64,000 nt of DNA from an uncultured Thiotrichales bacterium (GCA_964614535.1 CAZTOZ010000023.1:81552-145551); one strand, 5' to 3'; shown: positions 18,708 through 31,842, numbered from the stretch's first letter. Notes: generated from the letters alone by a model not told the origin. Translations and numbers: made by a program.

Positions 18708-18863
18708 TCACACCAGGCGCAGGAAACCGGCCGCCAGCAGCACCAGCATGGTCGCCGCGATCCCGAACAGCAGGTTGGACTGCCGCCGTTTCAGCGGCCG
18801 GATGGCCCAGGCGTACCAGGCCATGACCAGCGCCACGGCGAACAGGACGAACAGCAGCCGCAT
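18708..18863 (-). CDS. small hypothetical membrane protein (51 aa)
   Basis: Two hydrophobic helices (MRLLFVLFAVALVMAWYAW...LLFGIAATMLVLLAAGFL). Its ATG overlaps the ygfZ stop in an ATGA arrangement. Confidence 0.35.
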   Translation of the reverse strand: MRLLFVLFAVALVMAWYAWAIRPLKRRQSNLLFGIAATMLVLLAAGFLRLV

Positions 18864-19930
18864 CAGGTTTTCTTCTCTTTCGGTGGCGGAAAGTCGTAGG
18901 GTGGTGGCGTCACGCGACCGGCGGGGCCGTCGCGATCGCCCAGCAGAATCGGACCGTCGCCGTCCGCATAGTGGGTCTTCAGCACGGCCAGGCTCTCGAT
19001 GCCGCCATCGGGATGGTGTGCCGCCATGACGACATTGCCGACTGGCTGCTCCCCCTCGGTGGAGTAGAGCTTCGTGCCCGGTTCGGGCAGCGCCTCGATA
19101 TCGAAGTGGAGCCGGTACATGCGTCGCTTGGGCGCGCCGAGATAGTGCATGCGCGCCACCACCTCCTGACCGGTGTAGCAACCTTTCTGGAAGCTGACGC
19201 CACCGATGATCTCGTAGTTGATCATCTGCGGGACGAACAGTTCCCGGGTGCCGGCCGAGACGGTGGGTATTCCGGCAAGGATGTCCAGCAGCCGCCAGTT
19301 TTCGGCACCGACCGGTGCGCAGCGGACGTTCAGCGCGGTCCACAGCGAGGTCATCTCGTCCAGCTCGCCGAACATCTCGAAGCGGGGCAGAGGGCCGGGC
19401 ACCCGGATCACGGTGACGCCACCGAGGGTGGCCACCTCGTCGATCGCCCCGGGACAGCCACCGAGCGCCTGTTCCAGCTCCTCCACGGCGGTGGCGCCGG
19501 AGATGCCGAAGCGCACCAGCGCGTCGTTGCCATCCTCCAGCGTCACGTCGCTGCGCAGCACATACATGCGCAGGCGCTTGAGCGTCTCCTCCAGCAGATC
19601 GCAGGCCACCGTCATGTAGATGGTCCGATCGCGGCGGAACAGGCGAAAAGTGGCCAGCGCCCGACCTTTCGGCGTGCAGAACGCCGCCAGTCGGGAGTGG
19701 CCGGCATCGACGGTGCGGACGTCGGCGGTGAGCTGCCCCTGCAGGAACGTCTCCATGTCGTCGCCATAGGCCTGAAGAAGGCCGACATGCGAGAGATCGC
19801 AGATGACGGTGCCGCCGAGGGTGGCGCGGCGCTCCCGCTCGACATTGCCGAAGCTGGCCACTTCGTGCTCGTTGTCATCGGCAAATTCGGCGCCGCTATC
19901 GATCAGTAGCTCTTTCCATTCAGGTTTCAT
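18863..19930 (-). CDS. ygfZ: tRNA-modifying folate-binding protein YgfZ
   Basis: GcvT-like fold with the conserved C-terminal KGCYTGQE motif. Confidence 0.85.
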   Translation of the reverse strand: MKPEWKELLIDSGAEFADDNEHEVASFGNVERERRATLGGTVICDLSHVGLLQAYGDDMETFLQGQLTADVRTVDAGHSRLAAFCTPKGRALATFRLFRRDRTIYMTVACDLLEETLKRLRMYVLRSDVTLEDGNDALVRFGISGATAVEELEQALGGCPGAIDEVATLGGVTVIRVPGPLPRFEMFGELDEMTSLWTALNVRCAPVGAENWRLLDILAGIPTVSAGTRELFVPQMINYEIIGGVSFQKGCYTGQEVVARMHYLGAPKRRMYRLHFDIEALPEPGTKLYSTEGEQPVGNVVMAAHHPDGGIESLAVLKTHYADGDGPILLGDRDGPAGRVTPPPYDFPPPKEKKT

Positions 19931-20124
19931 AGTGGTTGTTCGTTTCTCTTTGGTGGTTGTGGTCGTCGGCTGGCCCCGGTGCGGGGCGTTGAAAAATGGG
20001 AAAATGGCCGGATCGTAGTCCTGACAACGGTGGACGGGCCATTGACAAAGATGCGGATACTTTACCCCAACTCAAGCGCCGGCGCAGAGTGCCGCCGACG
20101 GGGCGGGGGCGTACCGGCGCCAGC

Positions 20125-20547
20125 GTGAGCATACGCCCGCCGACGCTGAAACTGCGCCCGTCGCGGGCGATGGGCGTGTGGCGCATCGCCACCCATCTGC
20201 TGGCGGCGGCCGCCATCGCGCTGGCGAGGCTGCCAACACCGCTGGCCGCCATGCTGCTGCTGGTCGTCGCCGCCAGTCTGTGGCTCGGGTTGCGGCGTGA
20301 GCAGCGGCGCGGACGCTGGGTATTGACGCCGTTGACCGCGGACGACTGGCATCTGCGTTACCACGACCGGGAGGAGCGCGGCAGGGTGTGCGGGGGACGG
20401 GTCTTCCGCCACCTGGTGACGCTCCGTTTCCGCGTCGAGGGAAGGCGGTGGCCGCGCACCATCGCCATTGCCGCCGACGCCGTTCCGGCCGACGTCCATC
20501 GCCGTCTGCGTGCCTGGCTCAACCTGCGGGAGGGGGATCGCCAATGA
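20125..20547 (+). CDS. ygfX: YgfX/CptA-like inner-membrane protein
   Basis: Two TM helices followed by a basic Arg/Trp-rich tail. The N-terminal pattern LRPSRAMGVWRIATHLL parallels E. coli YgfX LRVSWRAQWLSLLIHGL. The start is uncertain: GTG at 20125 or ATG at 20170. Confidence 0.5.
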   Translation: MSIRPPTLKLRPSRAMGVWRIATHLLAAAAIALARLPTPLAAMLLLVVAASLWLGLRREQRRGRWVLTPLTADDWHLRYHDREERGRVCGGRVFRHLVTLRFRVEGRRWPRTIAIAADAVPADVHRRLRAWLNLREGDRQ

Positions 20548-21998
20548 AACGCTGGATCGACCATCTGCTCGAGACCGATCCCGAACAACGGCTGACGAGC
20601 TGGCTGTTCCTGCGCCTGCTCGCCATCGTCTACTTCGTCGCCTTCGCCTCGCTGTCGGTGCAGATCGTCGGGCTGGTCGGGCCGGACGGCATCCTGCCCT
20701 TCACCGAAGCGGCCAGGGTGGGCTACGAACGCTTCGGTCACGACGCCTGGTGGATGTTCCCGACGCTGTTCTGGATCGACGCCAGCGATGCCGCGCTGCA
20801 TGGCGCCACCTTCGCCGGGATGCTGCTGTCGCTGTCGCTGCTGTTCGGCTTCTATCCGCGCTTCTGCCTGACGCTGATGTTCGTGCTCTACCTGTCACTG
20901 CTGACGGCGGGGCAGACGTTTCTCACTTTCCAGTGGGACATCCTGCTGCTCGAGACGGGGTTCTTCGCCATCTTTCTCGCCGCCAACCCGAGCCGGCTGG
21001 TGATCTTCTTCTTCCACTGGCTGCTGTTCCGGCTGCGTTTCCTCTCCGGCCTGTCGAAAATCCTCAGCGGGGATCCGGTCTGGGCCAATCTGACGACACT
21101 CGACTACTACTTCGAGACCCAGCCGCTGCCCCATATCGGCTCCTGGTATGCGCACCATCTGCCAGAGGCGGTGCACCGTTTCGGTACCGGCTTCACGCTG
21201 TTCGCCGAGTTGATCGTGCCGTTCTTCATCTTCATGCCGCGGCCGTTCCGTATCGTCGCGGCGATCGTCACCACGCTGCTGCAGCTGGTCATCATCGCCA
21301 CCAGCAACCACAACTGGATCAACATCCTGACCATCGTGCTCTGCCTCTTTCTGCTCGACGACCGCATCGTCGGCCGACTGATGCCGAAGAACCTCGTGCG
21401 TTCGATTCTTGCCGCGACGCCACGCGTCGACCGGCGCTGGGGCGGCGCCCTGCTGCTGGGTGGGCTGCTGGTCTTCTCCACCAGCCTGCTGTCGATCCAT
21501 GCCCGCGTCATCGGCCAGATACCGCCGCCGTCGGTTGCTTTCGTCGCCGACGTGGTGCGTCACTACGGACTCGGCCATGTCTATCACGTCTTCCCGACGA
21601 TGCAGACCGAACGCCAGGAGCTGGAGATCGTCGGCTCCAACGACGGCAAGCGATGGCTGGCATACCGCTTTCGTTACAAGCCGGGGCCGCTCGATCGGCC
21701 ACCCCGGTTCAACGTGCCGCACCAGCCACGGCTCGACTGGCAGATGTGGTTTCTGCCACCGCAGTTCCCCGATCAGCTGGAGTGGTTCGACCGCTTCATG
21801 GGCAAAATCGCCGCCGGCGAGAAAAAGGTGCTGGCGCTGCTCGATGAAAACCCCTTCCCGGACCGGCCGCCAAGATATCTGCGTGTCCGCGTCTGGCGCT
21901 ACCACTTCACCACGCCGGAAGAACGGCGCCGCACCGGACAGTGGTGGAAGCGGGAGTTCCTCGGCTACTTTCCCCATACGCCGCCACGCCGGCCGTAG
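20544..21998 (+). CDS. lipase maturation factor (LMF1-like, DUF1222) family membrane protein
   Basis: Polytopic membrane protein with LMF family-wide similarity (LSGLSKILSGDPVWANLTTLDYYFETQPLP). Its ATG overlaps the ygfX stop in an ATGA arrangement. Confidence 0.8.
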   Translation: MKRWIDHLLETDPEQRLTSWLFLRLLAIVYFVAFASLSVQIVGLVGPDGILPFTEAARVGYERFGHDAWWMFPTLFWIDASDAALHGATFAGMLLSLSLLFGFYPRFCLTLMFVLYLSLLTAGQTFLTFQWDILLLETGFFAIFLAANPSRLVIFFFHWLLFRLRFLSGLSKILSGDPVWANLTTLDYYFETQPLPHIGSWYAHHLPEAVHRFGTGFTLFAELIVPFFIFMPRPFRIVAAIVTTLLQLVIIATSNHNWINILTIVLCLFLLDDRIVGRLMPKNLVRSILAATPRVDRRWGGALLLGGLLVFSTSLLSIHARVIGQIPPPSVAFVADVVRHYGLGHVYHVFPTMQTERQELEIVGSNDGKRWLAYRFRYKPGPLDRPPRFNVPHQPRLDWQMWFLPPQFPDQLEWFDRFMGKIAAGEKKVLALLDENPFPDRPPRYLRVRVWRYHFTTPEERRRTGQWWKREFLGYFPHTPPRRP

Positions 21999-22043
21999 CC
22001 GTCGGCACCTTGAAATCGCCGCCCTCAACCGCAGCTTTTCGAT

Positions 22044-22916
22044 ATGGGCGAGCAACGGCGAGACAGCAATCTCCTTGATGATCCGCTCTGGGTCGAACAG
22101 GTGGGTGATGGACCGGTGGTGGCCACCGCGATCCATGCCGGGCACGAAGTGCGGCGTGATCTGTTGCCACTGCTGGCGATCGACGAATCGACCCGGGCGC
22201 GGGAGGAAGATCCCTATACCGACGCGCTGGTCAAGGTGGTGCCGTCCTGGATTGCGTTCAAACGTTCCCGCTTCGAGGTGGATCTCAACCGGCCGAAGAA
22301 CGAAGCGGTCTATCTCTCGCCGGAGATGGCCTGGGGGTTGCACGTCTGGAAAAAACCGCTCGATGAAACCGAGATCGAACGCTCGCTGGAGGAGTACGAC
22401 GCCTTCTATGACGAACTCTATCGACTGCTGAAGAAGATCGAACGGCGGTATGGCTGTTTCGTCGTCTTCGACCTGCACAGCTACAACCATCGCCGCCGGG
22501 GACCACATGCGCCACCGGAGGATCCCGCTGGCAATCCCGATGTCAATGTGGGCACCGGTTCACTGGATCACAAGCGTTGTGGTGCGGTGGTAAGGCGGTT
22601 CATCGAGGATCTGCGCAACTACGATTTTCTCGGTCACCATCTCGATGTGCGGGAGAACGTCAAGTTCAAGGGGCGTCAGCTGGCCGAATGGATCCACCGG
22701 AAATTCCCCGATACGGCCTGTGTCCTGGCCATCGAATTCAAGAAATTCTTCATGGACGAGTGGACCGGTGTGGCCGACATCGATCAGGTGGTGGAGATTC
22801 GCAAGGCGCTGCAGGCAACGCTGCCCGGCATCGTCGAGACCCTGCACCGGATCCCGCAGTGCCAGAAAAAACGGCATGAGACGCCCCCCGGGAGCAGCGG
22901 CGATGCAGCGCGTTGA
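22044..22916 (+). CDS. N-formylglutamate amidohydrolase (FGase) family protein
   Basis: FGase-family similarity (VATAIHAGHEVR...DLHSY). The first gene of a conserved triad. Confidence 0.8.
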   Translation: MGEQRRDSNLLDDPLWVEQVGDGPVVATAIHAGHEVRRDLLPLLAIDESTRAREEDPYTDALVKVVPSWIAFKRSRFEVDLNRPKNEAVYLSPEMAWGLHVWKKPLDETEIERSLEEYDAFYDELYRLLKKIERRYGCFVVFDLHSYNHRRRGPHAPPEDPAGNPDVNVGTGSLDHKRCGAVVRRFIEDLRNYDFLGHHLDVRENVKFKGRQLAEWIHRKFPDTACVLAIEFKKFFMDEWTGVADIDQVVEIRKALQATLPGIVETLHRIPQCQKKRHETPPGSSGDAAR

Positions 22917-24744
22917 TGCACTGGCCGACCGGGTCATCGAAACGCTCGACAATGGCGAGCCGGTGGATCTTGCCTTGCCCGGTGGTGGCCGGCTGCACAT
23001 CGACCGTCCCCTGCCTTTTCTCTGCATCCACCGTAATGAAGAGGGTGCCGCCGACGACGTCACGGCCGCGCTGGTGGCTACCCAGTCGGCCTGGATGGTG
23101 GTGCCGGCGCCAGCAGCGCCCGAGGCATTGCTGAGTGCGCTGGCGGACTACCAACAGGCGCGGTTTGGCGCCTGCCTGTTGCTGGAGCTGTGGGCTGCCC
23201 CGCACGATGACGAGCAGTTGCCCGATCACGCCTTTTGCATCGTTGCGCCACAACGGCATCCGCCCCGGGAGGTGATCGACGAGCTGGAGAGTGCCCTCGT
23301 CAAGGTGACGATTCATCGCCGTACCCCCCGTATCGAGGTGGCCTACCGGCAGCGAGTGTCGCCCCCGGGATTGCCGCCATTGCCGGCAGGCGGGCCATGT
23401 CGGCGGCTCGGACTGGAGGTGAGTCCAGTCTATCGGGATCCCGAAAGCGGCGAGGTCTTCACCTTTGCGATGCGCGTTTTCCGGCAACGGCTCAATACGG
23501 CGCTCAAGCGCGCTTTCTACCGTTTTTCTCAGTGCTGCACACGGCATCGGCCCGCCCATTTCCATGCCCTCGGGCCGCGCTCGATCACGCCGGCGGTCAA
23601 GGCGGTCGATGCCCGGCTTGCCGAGATCAGCGAACGATTCGATCTGTTGCTGCACGTCACCCCGGTCAATGTGGCGCAGGCCTGGGCGGCATTCCAGGCG
23701 AGCCGCTTCGAGCAGGCCCCTGAATTTCTCTACCGCCCACGCACCATCGATCCCGACAGGATGAAACGGGCCCTCTACCAGATCGAGATGGAGAGCATCG
23801 AGGATCCCACGCTGGCCGATATCTTCCGTGCCAAGCGTGATGAACTGGATCGTCAGATCACGCTGGTGGCAGACCGCAATACTCCCCGCTTTCTGCTCGG
23901 CAGCCGGCAACTGTTCCCCGACCCCTCGACGGGGTTGATCGAACAGGCGCGACGGATTCTCGAGATGCCGCCCGCCAGCGAGCCGGAAGGGGGGGACGAG
24001 CGGCTCGACGCCAACGCTTTCGCCGCCCTGGCCGAAGCCGAGATGGCCCGGTACCGGGCTCGCGATCCCGACTTCGCCAGCCGGGTGGAGGTACGCGACG
24101 ATATCGCCGGTATCATGGTCTCCCACGGTAATTTTCTGATCGGTGCCCAGGCGACGGTGGCCCGCGCCAGGGTCGATGCCGCACTCGCCCACGAAATCGG
24201 GACCCATGTGCTGACCTGGCACAACGGCGGCAAGCAGCCGCTGCGGGAGTTGCGTAGCGGCATGGCCGACTATGAGGGGCTGCAGGAAGGGCTGGCGGTG
24301 TTGTCGGAGTTTCTCGTCGGTCAGCTCGATCGTGGCAGGATGCGGCAACTGGCAGCCCGGGTGCTCGCGGTGCAGATGATCTGTGCGGGCGCCAGCTTCA
24401 TCGATGCCTTTCGCCAGCTGCATCGGGGCTGGCAGTTTACGGCCAGGGATGCCTTCATGATCACCATGCGGGTCTGGCGGGGCGGGGGATATACCAAGGA
24501 TGTGATCTATCTGCGCGGGCTGGCGGATTTGCTCGACCATCTCGGCCGTGGGGGGGCGCTCGAGAACCTCTGGCTCGGCAAACTGGCGCAGCAGCGCCTG
24601 TCGCTGATCGATGAGCTGCGCTGGCGCGGGATCCTCCGGCCGCCGGCGCTGATACCCGCTTTCCTCGACGATCCGCGAACCGCCTCGCGTATCCGGCGTC
24701 TCGCAAAAGGGCTGTTGGTCAGTGATTTGTTGCCTGCGCAATGA
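22903..24744 (+). CDS. flavohemoglobin-expression-modulating QEGLA-motif protein (DUF1704, putative Tyr/Phe-carboxypeptidase-like)
   Basis: Contains the diagnostic EGLQEGLA motif and HEIGTHV (HExxH-like). Starts at an ATG with a GGAG ribosome-binding site 8 nt upstream, overlapping the FGase-gene end by 14 nt in another frame. Confidence 0.85.
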   Translation: MQRVDALADRVIETLDNGEPVDLALPGGGRLHIDRPLPFLCIHRNEEGAADDVTAALVATQSAWMVVPAPAAPEALLSALADYQQARFGACLLLELWAAPHDDEQLPDHAFCIVAPQRHPPREVIDELESALVKVTIHRRTPRIEVAYRQRVSPPGLPPLPAGGPCRRLGLEVSPVYRDPESGEVFTFAMRVFRQRLNTALKRAFYRFSQCCTRHRPAHFHALGPRSITPAVKAVDARLAEISERFDLLLHVTPVNVAQAWAAFQASRFEQAPEFLYRPRTIDPDRMKRALYQIEMESIEDPTLADIFRAKRDELDRQITLVADRNTPRFLLGSRQLFPDPSTGLIEQARRILEMPPASEPEGGDERLDANAFAALAEAEMARYRARDPDFASRVEVRDDIAGIMVSHGNFLIGAQATVARARVDAALAHEIGTHVLTWHNGGKQPLRELRSGMADYEGLQEGLAVLSEFLVGQLDRGRMRQLAARVLAVQMICAGASFIDAFRQLHRGWQFTARDAFMITMRVWRGGGYTKDVIYLRGLADLLDHLGRGGALENLWLGKLAQQRLSLIDELRWRGILRPPALIPAFLDDPRTASRIRRLAKGLLVSDLLPAQ

Positions 24745-24781
24745 CCGCCCGCATCAGCGGGCTTGAAACGGAGAAAGCACC

Positions 24782-25846
24782 ATGCGGATCGGCATCATCG
24801 TCAACAGCCTGTTCACCGAGAAGGCGAGCTACACCACCACGTCGCTCGCAATGACCGCGGCCAATCTGGGACACGAGGTGTGGTACATCGACGTGGACGC
24901 CTTCGCCCTGCGGCCGGACGACCACAGCTGGGCCCACGCCTGGCCGGTGCCGGCCGAACGCCACCGCAAACCCGCGACGTTCCTTGCGGCGATGTGGCGG
25001 CAGGCGCCGGGAACACGGCGTGAGATCGACCTGCATGCGCTGGACGTGCTGATGCCACGCAACGACCCCAGCCAGGACGCCATCAGCCGTCCCTGGGCAC
25101 GCACGGCCGCCATCAACTTCACCCGTCTGGCGCGGCGTGCCGGCGTATTGGTGCTCAACGACCCCGACGGGCTCGACCTTGGCCTGACGAAACTCTATAT
25201 GGAGTATTTCCCCGAGTCGGTACGGCCCCGGACACTGGTGACGCGAGACAAGGACGAGGCAAAGGATTTCATTGCCGGGCAGGGGGGGTATGCCGTACTC
25301 AAGCCGCTGGCCGGCTCGGGCGGGCAGAGCGTTTTTCTGGTGCGCCCCCACGACACGCCCAATATCAACCAGATGCTCGATGCGGTGGCACGGGACAACT
25401 ACTTCATCGTCCAGGAATATCTGCGCGATGCCATCCATGGCGACACCCGCCTCTTCCTGCTCAATGGCGAGCCGTTTCAGGTCGAGGGGCGCTATGCCGC
25501 ACTGCATCGCCGCCGTCGCAGTGGCGATGCCGACATGCGCAGCAACCTCACCGCTGGTGCCGAGGCCGCCCCTGCCAAGGTGGATGCCGGCATGCTTGGG
25601 CTGGCCCGACAGACCAGTGAGCGTCTCAAGGAAGATGGCATTTTCCTTGCCGGTCTCGATATCGTTGGCGACAAGATCATGGAGATCAATGTCCAGACAC
25701 CCGGCGGCCTGCCAGCGGCCGAGAAGTTCGAGGGCGTGCCATTCACGACGGCGTTGCTCGAAGCGATCGAACGCAAACTGCCCTATCGGGGAAAACTGGA
25801 GAACAAAGCGCTGGCGGTATTCGATCCGCTCGTCCAGGCACCGTGA
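24782..25846 (+). CDS. GshB/RimK-like ATP-grasp ligase (alpha-L-glutamate-ligase-related)
   Basis: ATP-grasp motifs (GYAVLKPLAGSGGQSVFLV, EINVQTPGG). GGAG ribosome-binding site upstream. Confidence 0.85.
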   Translation: MRIGIIVNSLFTEKASYTTTSLAMTAANLGHEVWYIDVDAFALRPDDHSWAHAWPVPAERHRKPATFLAAMWRQAPGTRREIDLHALDVLMPRNDPSQDAISRPWARTAAINFTRLARRAGVLVLNDPDGLDLGLTKLYMEYFPESVRPRTLVTRDKDEAKDFIAGQGGYAVLKPLAGSGGQSVFLVRPHDTPNINQMLDAVARDNYFIVQEYLRDAIHGDTRLFLLNGEPFQVEGRYAALHRRRRSGDADMRSNLTAGAEAAPAKVDAGMLGLARQTSERLKEDGIFLAGLDIVGDKIMEINVQTPGGLPAAEKFEGVPFTTALLEAIERKLPYRGKLENKALAVFDPLVQAP

Positions 25847-25871
25847 GCAGGACGGGCCGGCGACCCCGCGA

Positions 25872-26495
25872 TCATCGCCGACCGGCCAGCGGCAGCGGGG
25901 CGCTGAAATGGCGTCCCCGGCATTTGATGATGTCGACCCTGTCCGGTGGCAGCAGCCGCAGCCGTAGCGCGGCGGGGGAGTGTTGTCGGCGGGCATCGGC
26001 GTGACGCAACAGAAAACCGCAGGCGTCGCCGGCCTCGGCCGCCAGTTGCAGGCGTCGCAGGGCCTTGGTGGTGATGGCGGGGGCGGGCCAGGCAAGCACG
26101 GCCCGGCAATGGCCGGCGCGCAGCGTCTGCTCCAGTGCCCACTCGTCGTCGCCCCGGTTGCGCGGTGCAATCACGACGAGCCGGGTGAGATCGACACCGG
26201 CTTGTTGTAATGCGGGTGCGTAGGGCGGCCAGGGCGGGGCCACGAGGGCGACATGGTGGCGCTGTCGTGTCAGCCGGCGCAGGGCCGGCAGCAGCAGTTG
26301 CCACTCCCCCTGGCCGGGATGGTCGTGGAGGATCTCGGTCAGCGCGCCCCGCGGCCAACCCCCGTCGGGGAGTCGGGCATCGAGGTTGGGATGGCCGCTG
26401 GGCAGACCGTTGGCGCTGCCGGGGCGGGCCTGGTGAAAATCATGGTCGCGGCCACGCCAGATACCGGGCTGGCGAAGCAGCTCATGCAGGCTCAT
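25872..26495 (-). CDS. imuA: SOS-regulated ImuA/SulA-like protein
   Basis: RecA-fold-like motifs typical of the ImuA/SulA superfamily (GALTEIL...GQGEWQLLLPALRRL). The start overlaps the lexA 3' end by 14 nt. Confidence 0.6.
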   Translation of the reverse strand: MSLHELLRQPGIWRGRDHDFHQARPGSANGLPSGHPNLDARLPDGGWPRGALTEILHDHPGQGEWQLLLPALRRLTRQRHHVALVAPPWPPYAPALQQAGVDLTRLVVIAPRNRGDDEWALEQTLRAGHCRAVLAWPAPAITTKALRRLQLAAEAGDACGFLLRHADARRQHSPAALRLRLLPPDRVDIIKCRGRHFSAPLPLAGRR

Positions 26496-27096
26496 TGCGG
26501 ATGACGCCGACGACGATCCCTTCGATGCCGAAATCGATATTGGCCGCGCTGACGATGATCGGCTTGTAGGCCGGATTCTCCGGTAGCAGACGGATCTGCT
26601 TGGGCGTGATGCGAAGCCGCTTGACGGTGACCTCGCCATCGATACGGGCGACGACGATCTGGCCGTGCTCGGCATGCGCCGTCTTGTGGATCGCCAGCAG
26701 ATCGCCGTCGAAGATGCCGGCGTCGATCATGCTGTCGCCGTGGACACGCAGCAGATAGTCGGCCGGCGGCTGGAACAGCCGCGGATCCACCTCGTAGTAG
26801 TCCTCGATGAACTCCGCGGCGAGGATCGGCTCGCCCGCCGCCACCCGGCCGACCATCGGCAAGCCGGTGGGCTCGGACGCTTCCCCTTCGATCAGGCGGA
26901 TACCGCGGGAGGTGCCGGACAGCAGCTCGATCACCCCTTTCTTCTCCAGCGCCTGGAGGTGTTTTTCCGCCGCATAGGTGGAGCGGAAACCGAAATGGTC
27001 GGCGATCTCGGCCCGGGTGGGGGGCATGCCGGTCTTCTTCTGGTGACGGCGGATCAGACGGAGGATTTCACGCTGGCGGGGGGTCAGGGATCGCAT
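26482..27096 (-). CDS. lexA: LexA repressor
   Basis: Full-length LexA. N-terminal winged HTH, cleavage site VAAGEP, and S24 peptidase Ser/Lys motifs (GDSM...VKRL). Confidence 0.95.
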   Translation of the reverse strand: MRSLTPRQREILRLIRRHQKKTGMPPTRAEIADHFGFRSTYAAEKHLQALEKKGVIELLSGTSRGIRLIEGEASEPTGLPMVGRVAAGEPILAAEFIEDYYEVDPRLFQPPADYLLRVHGDSMIDAGIFDGDLLAIHKTAHAEHGQIVVARIDGEVTVKRLRITPKQIRLLPENPAYKPIIVSAANIDFGIEGIVVGVIRNEPA

Positions 27097-29119: not shown

Positions 29120-30091
29120 ATGAAGGAAAAACTCAGAGTCCGCACGGCCATCGTGCTGCGCACCACCACGGGCGTCTCCCTGGAGGCCGCGCGGCTGGCG
29201 CTGTTCAATGCCCTGCTGGCGCGTCGCTACGACCAGCCGCTGGTGCTGCGGATCGACAATCCGATGGACGACGATGGCGCCGGCACCGAGGCCATGCTGG
29301 ACGATCTGCGCTGGCTGGGGGTGGAGTGGACGGCGGGCCCCGATGTCGGTGGTGAACACGCCCCCTATCTCCGCTCACACCGCAGCAGCATCTACGCCGC
29401 TTTCTACGTCAAACTGATCGAGATGGGGCGCGCCTACCCCTGTTTCTGCACCGAGCGGGAACTGGAGGCCATGCGCCGTGCCCAGATCGCGTCCGGCATT
29501 ACGCCGCACTACGCCGGTGGCTGCAACCGGCTGAACCGGCAGGGGCGCCAGCACCGCATCGACAAGGGCCTGCCCGCCGTGCTGCGGTTCGCCATCCGCC
29601 GGGACTGGCGTTGCCACTACGACGACCTGCTGCTGGGACAGTACCACTGCGGCCCCGACGAGGTGGGGGATTTCGTGATCCGTGGACGCAACGGGGATGC
29701 GCAGCGGGTATTCACTACCACGGTGGACGATGCGCTGTTTGGTGTCACCCACCGCTTCCGTGGCATCGACGAACGCCAGCAGGTGCCGCAACAACTGGCG
29801 CTGGCCGATGCGCTGGGTTTGCCGTTGCCACTCTACGGACATCTGCCGCGGCTGCTGCCGGCGGCGTCGGAACAAGACGGCCTGCCCACGCTGACCTCGC
29901 TGCGCCGGGCGGGCTACCGACCGGAGGCGGTGCTGAACCATCTGGCCCGGCTCGGACACCGTTACGACAGCGAGCTGGTGCTGGACTTCGACGAGCTGGC
30001 CCGCCAGTTCCGCCTCTCCCGCCTCTGCGAGGAGCCGGTGTTCCACCGCCGTGAACGGCTCGACGCCTGGCAGGCGGCGGTCACCGCCTGA
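29120..30091 (+). CDS. glutamyl-tRNA synthetase catalytic-domain paralog (GluQRS-like) with degenerate HIGH and KMSKS motifs
   Basis: Aligns to the GluRS N-terminus (VLRIDNPMDD vs VLRIEDTDLE; CxC zinc knuckle YPCFCTERELEAM; THRFRGIDE vs THVIRGEDH). The HIGH motif is SLEA, and the KMSKS position reads LTSLRR. No anticodon-binding domain is present. Confidence 0.75.
   Translation: MKEKLRVRTAIVLRTTTGVSLEAARLALFNALLARRYDQPLVLRIDNPMDDDGAGTEAMLDDLRWLGVEWTAGPDVGGEHAPYLRSHRSSIYAAFYVKLIEMGRAYPCFCTERELEAMRRAQIASGITPHYAGGCNRLNRQGRQHRIDKGLPAVLRFAIRRDWRCHYDDLLLGQYHCGPDEVGDFVIRGRNGDAQRVFTTTVDDALFGVTHRFRGIDERQQVPQQLALADALGLPLPLYGHLPRLLPAASEQDGLPTLTSLRRAGYRPEAVLNHLARLGHRYDSELVLDFDELARQFRLSRLCEEPVFHRRERLDAWQAAVTA

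Positions 30092-30183: not shown

Positions 30184-31842
<1,659 letters not shown>

Follow-up and report, generated by a model that had tools for sequence, protein, structure and literature searches.

Bacterial operons that encode an ATP-grasp glutamate ligase together with a peptidase cutting stretches of glutamate residues have been described as RimK/RimB and RloABC, and the rlo system is required for hypo-osmotic tolerance (PMC11957051). The eukaryotic carboxypeptidases TMCP1/MATCAP and TMCP2, which use an HExxxH motif and the glutamate of an ‘EEG’ motif, strip the C-terminal tyrosine and then glutamates from the acidic tails of tubulin; they are efficient deglutamylases with a patchy distribution among eukaryotes (PMC10499314). 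Here, we describe three consecutive genes in a 64,000-nucleotide stretch of DNA from an uncultured Thiotrichales bacterium (GCA_964614535.1 CAZTOZ010000023.1:81552-145551; G+C content about 64%), which is called the window and provides the numbering for all coordinates. The genes encode an enzyme of the N-formylglutamate amidohydrolase (FGase) family, a protein with a QEGLA motif (QEGLA protein), and an ATP-grasp amidoligase resembling the glutathione synthetase GshB. The triad is conserved in at least 15 bacterial phyla, and the QEGLA protein contains, besides a metallocarboxypeptidase domain of the MATCAP type, a degenerate FGase-like domain.

The triad belongs to a known kind of system, an ATP-grasp amidoligase with its cognate peptidase, and constitutes a distinct variant of it. 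As in RimK-RimB and RloABC, the operon pairs an ATP-grasp ligase of the type that extends C-termini with peptidases expected to remove the added residues. The conserved operonic linkage of ligase and peptidase that characterizes RimK/RimB-type modules was also found for the triad. Both kinds of system appear to be cytoplasmic, and responses to low osmolarity have been connected with both. In contrast to RimK-RimB and RloABC, the triad has as its peptidases a gluzincin of the MATCAP type and an FGase/M14-like amidohydrolase rather than the retropepsin-like RimB or RloA, the ligase is GshB-like, there is no transglutaminase-7TM partner, and the taxonomic range is much wider.

Conservation of the triad across bacteria

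An alignment of 21 homologues of the QEGLA protein was used as a query to scan one genome per species (GTDB). The scan gave at least 586 stretches that code for a relative of the QEGLA protein. The best 80 loci, to which all locus counts refer, were kept with 8-kb flanks, and the window proteins were compared with them by tblastn. According to the names in the genome records, the 80 loci span at least 15 phyla. The groups represented are Gamma- and Alphaproteobacteria, Myxococcota, Acidobacteriota, Calditrichota, Planctomycetota, Chloroflexota, Bacteroidota (including cultured Pontibacter species), Gemmatimonadota, Verrucomicrobiota, Kiritimatiellia, Lentisphaerota, Armatimonadota, Thermodesulfobacteriota, Ignavibacteriales, and Obscuribacterales.

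The ligase is present in 77 of the 80 loci and the FGase in 70. Since three of the ten FGase-negative loci lack the upstream flank, the full triad occurs in 70 of the 77 loci that could be assessed. The initial annotation of the window had named a lack of co-occurrence of the three families beyond chance as an outcome that would refute it, and the triad withstands this test. The genes are directly adjacent in the order FGase-QEGLA-ligase in 63 loci, whereas three loci have the order QEGLA-ligase-FGase and four carry an insertion or an inverted ligase gene. Five loci contain only the QEGLA protein and the ligase, and two the QEGLA protein alone. About 20 of the 53 measured junctions between the QEGLA and ligase genes have a 4-nucleotide overlap. 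By a rough estimate, a random 16-kb stretch would hold a member of the ligase or FGase family less than 1% of the time, and the association of the triad genes is far beyond a chance neighbourhood.

In some genomes the first two genes of the triad are fused. The proteins P0092 and P0104 (891 residues) combine PF05013 with PF08014, and an open reading frame (ORF) of locus L008 is also an FGase-QEGLA fusion. The gene of P0104 is followed by a third gene, and the N-terminal part of P0104 is 61% identical to the FGase of the window. The best homologues of the FGase and the ligase are often located on the same contigs as those of the QEGLA protein, judging by identical lengths of the longest contig, and an 847-kb contig with precomputed Pfam annotation contains FGase, MATCAP, and GSH-S domains together in a housekeeping region. 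Among the three proteins, the FGase is the best conserved, with 84–86% identity to its nearest relatives, compared to 77–81% for the ligase and 61–63% for the QEGLA protein.

Clustering of all ORFs of at least 60 residues from the 80 loci against each other identified neither a fourth conserved gene nor a gene for a substrate. Next in frequency come NtrC-type regulators, in 15 loci, and MscS channels, in 12, both at scattered positions. Seven loci (L010, L031, L061, L077, L079, L045, and L058) lack the FGase or both partners within the 8-kb flanks, and their QEGLA proteins still have the degenerate form of the N-terminal domain. A contig binned as ‘Candidatus Bathyarchaeota archaeon’ (L009, JAIVTC010000162.1) carries the full triad, with proteins 48–55% identical to their gammaproteobacterial counterparts; it is probably a mis-binned bacterial contig and not an archaeal occurrence.

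Domains and conserved residues of the three proteins

The assignment in the initial annotation of an FGase-family hydrolase, a 613-residue QEGLA protein with the sequence HEIGTH, and a GshB-like ATP-grasp ligase is borne out by Pfam and NCBIfam matches. The QEGLA protein matches PF08014 over residues 263–596 with an E-value of 4.6e-87 (292.8 bits against a cut-off of 27). It barely passes the cut-off of TIGR02421 (339.1 against 338.65 bits), a model that covers residues 236–597 only. The HExxxH motif, the downstream glutamate within QEG, and the MATCAP fold, which define membership in the MATCAP family, are all present. The HExxxH motif is that of TMCP1/MATCAP, for which the EEG motif was described as well (PMC10499314). 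From the alignment of these motifs, the glutamate of QEGLA is the putative counterpart of the ‘EEG’ third metal ligand in TMCP/MATCAP.

The N-terminal 230 residues of the QEGLA protein carried no annotation. Three methods, two of which are sequence tests, agree in assigning them to an FGase-like domain. The hhalign comparison of the columns of this domain with the FGase alignment gave an E-value of 0.019 over 189 columns and paired GRLHIDRxLPF with SRFEVDLNR, FGAxLLLELW with GxFVVxDLHSY, and LGLEVxPVYRDxxTGE with VLAIEFKKFFMDEWTG. In a BLASTP comparison of the window FGase with the fusion protein P0104, a second match fell on the N-terminal domain of its QEGLA part (E-value 0.003), aligning YGCFVVFDLHS with YGAFLLFELWS. 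The domain has a tryptophan in place of the metal-binding histidine of ‘DLH’ and no conserved histidine. This loss extends to nearly all of the 80 loci, the ones that lack an FGase gene among them. Only 810 cluster representatives among 1.84 billion were retrieved with a domain profile, and no canonical FGase was drawn in; the full-length matches are proteins of 615–660 residues, in which the domain is N-terminal. Thus, the long-form QEGLA proteins are composed of a degenerate FGase paralogue joined to a MATCAP domain, and the paralogue is probably inactive. No description of the pseudo-FGase domain was found in the searchable literature, and it is put forward here as new. The initial annotation was right about the MATCAP/DUF1704 fold with HEIGTH and missed this second domain.

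The FGase scores 90.1 bits against PF05013, for which the cut-off is 28.9. Searches of the Protein Data Bank with the single sequence and with a profile returned nothing at an E-value of 1 or lower, and only the fold search succeeded: the AlphaFold2 model of the FGase matched, in Foldseek, the N-formylglutamate amidohydrolase 2q7s (E-value 4.5e-9) and 2odf (1e-6), followed by M14 carboxypeptidases. The residues H31, E54-E55-D56, R76, D80, N82, R83, H145, Y147, E204, E231, K233, and K234 are kept across phyla; R76, D80, N82, and R83 are part of the motif SRFEVDLNR, and H145 of DLHSY. By analogy to M14 enzymes, we infer that these residues could form a metal site of the His/acid/His type and provide both a general base and arginines that hold a free carboxylate. 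The enzyme has the fold of HutG, 2Q7S, and 2ODF, together with their SRxxxDxNR and DxH motifs, but its subfamily is very divergent and lacks the context of histidine utilization: no hut genes were found nearby among the scanned genes of the window, and none among the conserved neighbours in the 80 loci. Against the HutG equivalog model TIGR02017, the FGase reaches 20.2 bits and fails the cut-off of 278.75.

The ligase consists of a GSH-S N-terminal domain (PF02951, E-value 2.4e-11) and an ATP-grasp domain (PF02955, E-value 4.6e-41). A profile of 24 orthologues matched E. coli GshB (1gsa) over the full length with an E-value of 2.8e-50, and RimK with 5e-14. The conserved positions include the small loop LKPLxGSGG, GDxR (D221/R223), R243, R253-S254-N255 of the large loop, and the magnesium ligands D293, E301, and N303; the catalytic residues are invariant in 24–71 orthologues. 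The ligase shares with GshB (1GSA) the two-domain architecture over the full length and the ATP, magnesium, and loop residues, but its N-terminal 76 residues are unaligned in a single-sequence search, and its genomic partners are hydrolases instead of gshA. The scores are below every GshB cut-off (TIGR01380, 167.5 against 299.05; NF003573, 177.1 against 272; NF009110, 355.3 against 408) and below those of the RimK family (TIGR00768, 69.3 against 143.4; NF007764, 33.7 against 331). These scores thus give no support to the public label ‘glutathione synthase’. Wherever the 120 best homologues of the ligase have a source name, it is ‘glutathione synthase’ or ‘glutathione synthetase’, which looks like a systematic over-annotation of the whole subfamily. 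The initial annotation cited family descriptions in which the QEGLA protein co-occurs with an alpha-L-glutamate-ligase homolog; the neighbouring ligase is not this homolog: it is GshB-like, and TIGR02291 (‘alpha-L-glutamate ligase homolog’) is absent from its NCBIfam matches at E-values of 0.01 or lower. Since the catalytic residues are intact, the ligase, the MATCAP domain, and the FGase are all predicted to be catalytically competent.

Gene arrangement and neighbourhood in the window

The three genes had been predicted to be consecutive and overlapping or nearly abutting, and they are indeed ORFs of the same strand (Table 1), the first two of which overlap by 14 nucleotides, whereas the second and third are separated by 37 nucleotides. 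The start codon of the ligase gene is preceded by GGAG. Independent gene calls on the identical 145-kb public contig gave the same three products of 290, 613, and 354 residues. The edges of the triad in the window leave no space for an ORF of a small precursor. The scan of positions 19800–26800 for promoters and terminators was uninformative: it gave 0 promoter-like sites, and terminator-like sites were no more frequent than the background. Judged by eye, no N-terminus of the three proteins resembles a signal peptide, which suggests that the enzymes of the triad are cytoplasmic.

Table 1 Features of the FGase-QEGLA-ligase triad in the window
Feature	Position	Strand	Description
FGase-family amidohydrolase gene (M14-like fold)	22044..22916	+	290 residues; PF05013, E-value 3e-25; predicted active
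Long-form QEGLA protein gene	22903..24744	+	613 residues from the ATG at 22903; N-terminal pseudo-FGase domain and C-terminal MATCAP-type metallocarboxypeptidase domain
N-terminal domain of the QEGLA protein (about residues 1-232)	22903..23598	+	degenerate FGase-like alpha/beta domain, probably catalytically dead; no Pfam model
MATCAP domain (PF08014, formerly DUF1704), gluzincin carboxypeptidase	23689..24690	+	
HEIGTH (HExxxH metal-binding/catalytic motif), residues 430-435	24190..24207	+	H-E-x-G-[TVI]-H in all loci
QEGLA motif, residues 461-465	24283..24297	+	QEG[LI]A in all loci
GshB-like ATP-grasp amidoligase gene	24782..25846	+	354 residues; PF02951 and PF02955; predicted active

The gene preceding the triad (20544–21998, + strand) encodes a 484-residue protein homologous to the lipase maturation factor of eukaryotes (PF06762 and PF25179) and ends 45 nucleotides before the FGase gene. 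This LMF1-family gene was considered as a fourth member of the triad and rejected, because tblastn detected it in 0 of the 80 loci. It is itself preceded by a CptA/YgfX-like gene (20170–20547, + strand) and, further upstream, by a divergent YgfZ-like GCV_T gene (18863–19930, − strand). Downstream, lexA (25872–26675, − strand; LexA_DNA_bind and Peptidase_S24) and a weak SulA-like ORF (26482–27096, − strand; E-value 4.5e-4, which falls short of the Pfam cut-off) are convergent with the ligase gene, with the stop codons only 25 nucleotides apart. A gene for a truncated class-I glutamyl/glutaminyl-tRNA synthetase paralogue of 323 residues, which contains the catalytic domain only and is GluQ-RS-like, is located at 29120–30091 (+ strand), with the gene for a full-length glutaminyl-tRNA synthetase (30184–31842, + strand) directly downstream.

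Proposed function of the triad and its alternatives

We propose that the three genes encode one co-translated cytoplasmic module that would add a C-terminal amino acid to a substrate and remove it again. The substrate would be a small peptide or oligo-glutamate that bears a carboxylate and is probably acidic. The ligase, being of the GshB/RimK type, may convert the carboxylate of the substrate into an acyl-phosphate and add an amino acid, most likely glutamate. The MATCAP-type domain, with its HExxxH motif and the glutamate of QEGLA, would subsequently take C-terminal residues off the longer product. The FGase-type enzyme would split the final bond, of an N-acyl-amino acid or a dipeptide and thus a poor target for a carboxypeptidase, by analogy with the conversion of N-formyl-glutamate to formate and glutamate. 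The pseudo-FGase domain may either dock the active FGase or bind the free carboxylate of the substrate, as suggested by the fusions and by the retained RxxxD(R) motif. The physiological role could be the buffering or remodelling of the glutamate or peptide pool during osmotic shifts.

That the three enzymes act on one class of substrate is very likely. The closest relatives of the ligase, GshB and then RimK, both extend a C-terminal carboxylate, in agreement with the proposed first step. The initial annotation spoke of a peptide or gamma-glutamyl ligate-and-trim pathway; the ligation and trimming fit the intact catalytic residues, whereas no support was found for a gamma-glutamyl linkage. A small acidic peptide or oligo-glutamate as the substrate, with a role in glutamate and osmotic homeostasis, is a tentative assignment that may well turn out to be wrong. 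Glutamate is the best guess for the added residue because of the deglutamylase activity of MATCAP enzymes, the N-acyl-glutamate chemistry of FGases, and the link between glutamate and osmotic conditions. The only functional data found come from Photobacterium damselae, in which RS17020, a ‘glutathione synthase’ of 342 residues, and RS17025, a long-form QEGLA protein of 660 residues, are encoded by adjacent, overlapping genes and are upregulated 38-fold and 27-fold, respectively, in 1% compared to 3.5% NaCl (PMC10308900). RimK of P. damselae is upregulated 52-fold under the same comparison (PMC10308900). P. damselae has only the pair, in the order ligase then QEGLA.

Several points weigh against this proposal. 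The osmotic link comes from one transcriptome, of a relative that has the ligase-QEGLA pair only. A ligase that is co-expressed with hydrolases reversing its reaction looks futile, unless the reactions are sequential or regulated. The ligase is much nearer to GshB, which joins the acceptor glycine to a donor dipeptide, than to the glutamate ligase RimK. The FGase is not strictly obligatory, as its gene is missing from seven loci. The AlphaFold2 model of the FGase is of moderate quality (pLDDT, the predicted local distance difference test score, of 66.6), and the assignment of its metal ligands is based on the analogy to M14 enzymes. The searchable literature yielded neither a biochemical study of a bacterial PF08014 protein nor biochemical data for any member of the triad. 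No paper assigning a substrate was found there either; the amidoligase survey of Iyer et al. 2009, which may mention this neighbourhood, was outside the search.

The ligase might, instead, extend the C-terminal tail of a specific protein encoded elsewhere by one residue or several, from which the MATCAP domain and the FGase would remove them, in the way that RimK modifies ribosomal protein S6 and TTL/TTLL enzymes modify tubulin. MATCAP/TMCP enzymes work on protein tails, which they deglutamylate, and RimK/RimB provides a bacterial precedent in which the substrate is likewise not encoded nearby. The match of the ligase to RimK and the relationship of the FGase fold to M14 carboxypeptidases, the fold class of the CCP tubulin deglutamylases, are consistent with such a tagging cycle. 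However, the ligase is far nearer to the small-molecule enzyme GshB, including the N-terminal substrate domain, and the substrates of known FGase-family enzymes are small N-acyl amino acids. The fold of the MATCAP domain is also akin to that of the M32 and DUF885 enzymes, which act on oligopeptides, and no candidate substrate gene is conserved nearby in the 80 loci. We consider protein tagging rather unlikely.

A further step would be to regard the triad as a bacterial system of reversible C-terminal protein tagging that is equivalent to the eukaryotic toolkit for tubulin tyrosination and glutamylation, and possibly ancestral to it. The ligase would then be the equivalent of TTL/TTLL, the MATCAP domain that of MATCAP/TMCP, and the FGase that of the CCPs, with the pseudo-enzyme domain as a reader or adaptor. 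The parallel to the TTL/TTLL, MATCAP/TMCP, and M14 CCP toolkit is striking; it is at present an analogy, and such a kinship seems improbable. The QEGLA protein of the triad is only 21–22% identical to MATCAP and has a pseudo-FGase domain at its N-terminus that is lacking in the human MATCAP structures. The ligase does not detect TTL by sequence. Moreover, the enzymes of the triad are operon-encoded, and bacteria are without the tubulin substrate.

The similarity of the ligase to GshB, its nearest solved relative, raises the question of whether it is a true glutathione synthase, or makes an analogous thiol tripeptide, with the hydrolases turning over glutathione-related peptides. The top NCBIfam match of the ligase is NF009110 ‘glutathione synthetase’, and all annotation pipelines name it glutathione synthase. 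Nevertheless, the curated cut-offs led us to reject a true GshB, and gshA was not seen among the scanned genes of the window or the conserved neighbours of the 80 loci. The ligase subfamily is tied to the QEGLA protein and the FGase in Chloroflexota, Planctomycetota, Bacteroidota, and other groups, and glutathione is not known to be typical of these phyla. Glutathione turnover is also not known to involve hydrolases of these families. A role in glutathione metabolism is improbable.

The apparent antagonism of the enzymes would disappear if they acted consecutively in salvage or remodelling, the hydrolases trimming a peptide-like compound that is imported or recycled, after which the ligase would re-attach a different residue. 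Enzymes that cooperate in stoichiometric amounts are suggested by the translational coupling and by the fusions. With its carboxypeptidase, M14-like amidase, and ligase, the triad follows the logic of murein-peptide recycling by LdcA, MpaA, and Mpl. Nonetheless, no transporter or cell-wall gene is conserved beside the triad in the 80 loci, and we regard salvage as a doubtful explanation with little chance of being correct. The functions implied by the ordinary names, HutG of histidine utilization for the FGase, after the Pfam name of PF05013, and a regulator of flavohaemoglobin expression for the QEGLA protein, after the TIGR02421 name, are hardly credible, since the curated HutG cut-off and the missing hut genes led to the rejection of the former, and the QEGLA protein, in domain and fold comparisons, folds as a metallopeptidase, keeps its catalytic residues invariant, and lacks a DNA-binding domain. 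The name ‘flavohemoglobin expression-modulating’ goes back to the genetic effect of P. aeruginosa PA3697 on fhp (cited in PMC8070244).

The preferred reading of the triad as a ligate-and-trim module affects how its members should be named. In databases, thousands of proteins of the subfamily to which the triad belongs carry the label ‘glutathione synthase’, ‘N-formylglutamate amidohydrolase’, or ‘flavohemoglobin expression-modulating protein’. The evidence indicates that the triad proteins cooperate in a different task, and metabolic reconstructions are misled by such labels. The spread of the triad over at least 15 phyla implies a general function. The pseudo-FGase domain predicts a partnership of an enzyme with a pseudo-enzyme. 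The triad also shows the MATCAP/TMCP family in its bacterial setting; the eukaryotic members of this family were recognized as tubulin detyrosinases and deglutamylases only in 2022–2023, and the bacterial pairing of a ligase with a carboxypeptidase offers a testable route to the origin of MATCAP/TMCP enzymes and to their ancestral substrate.

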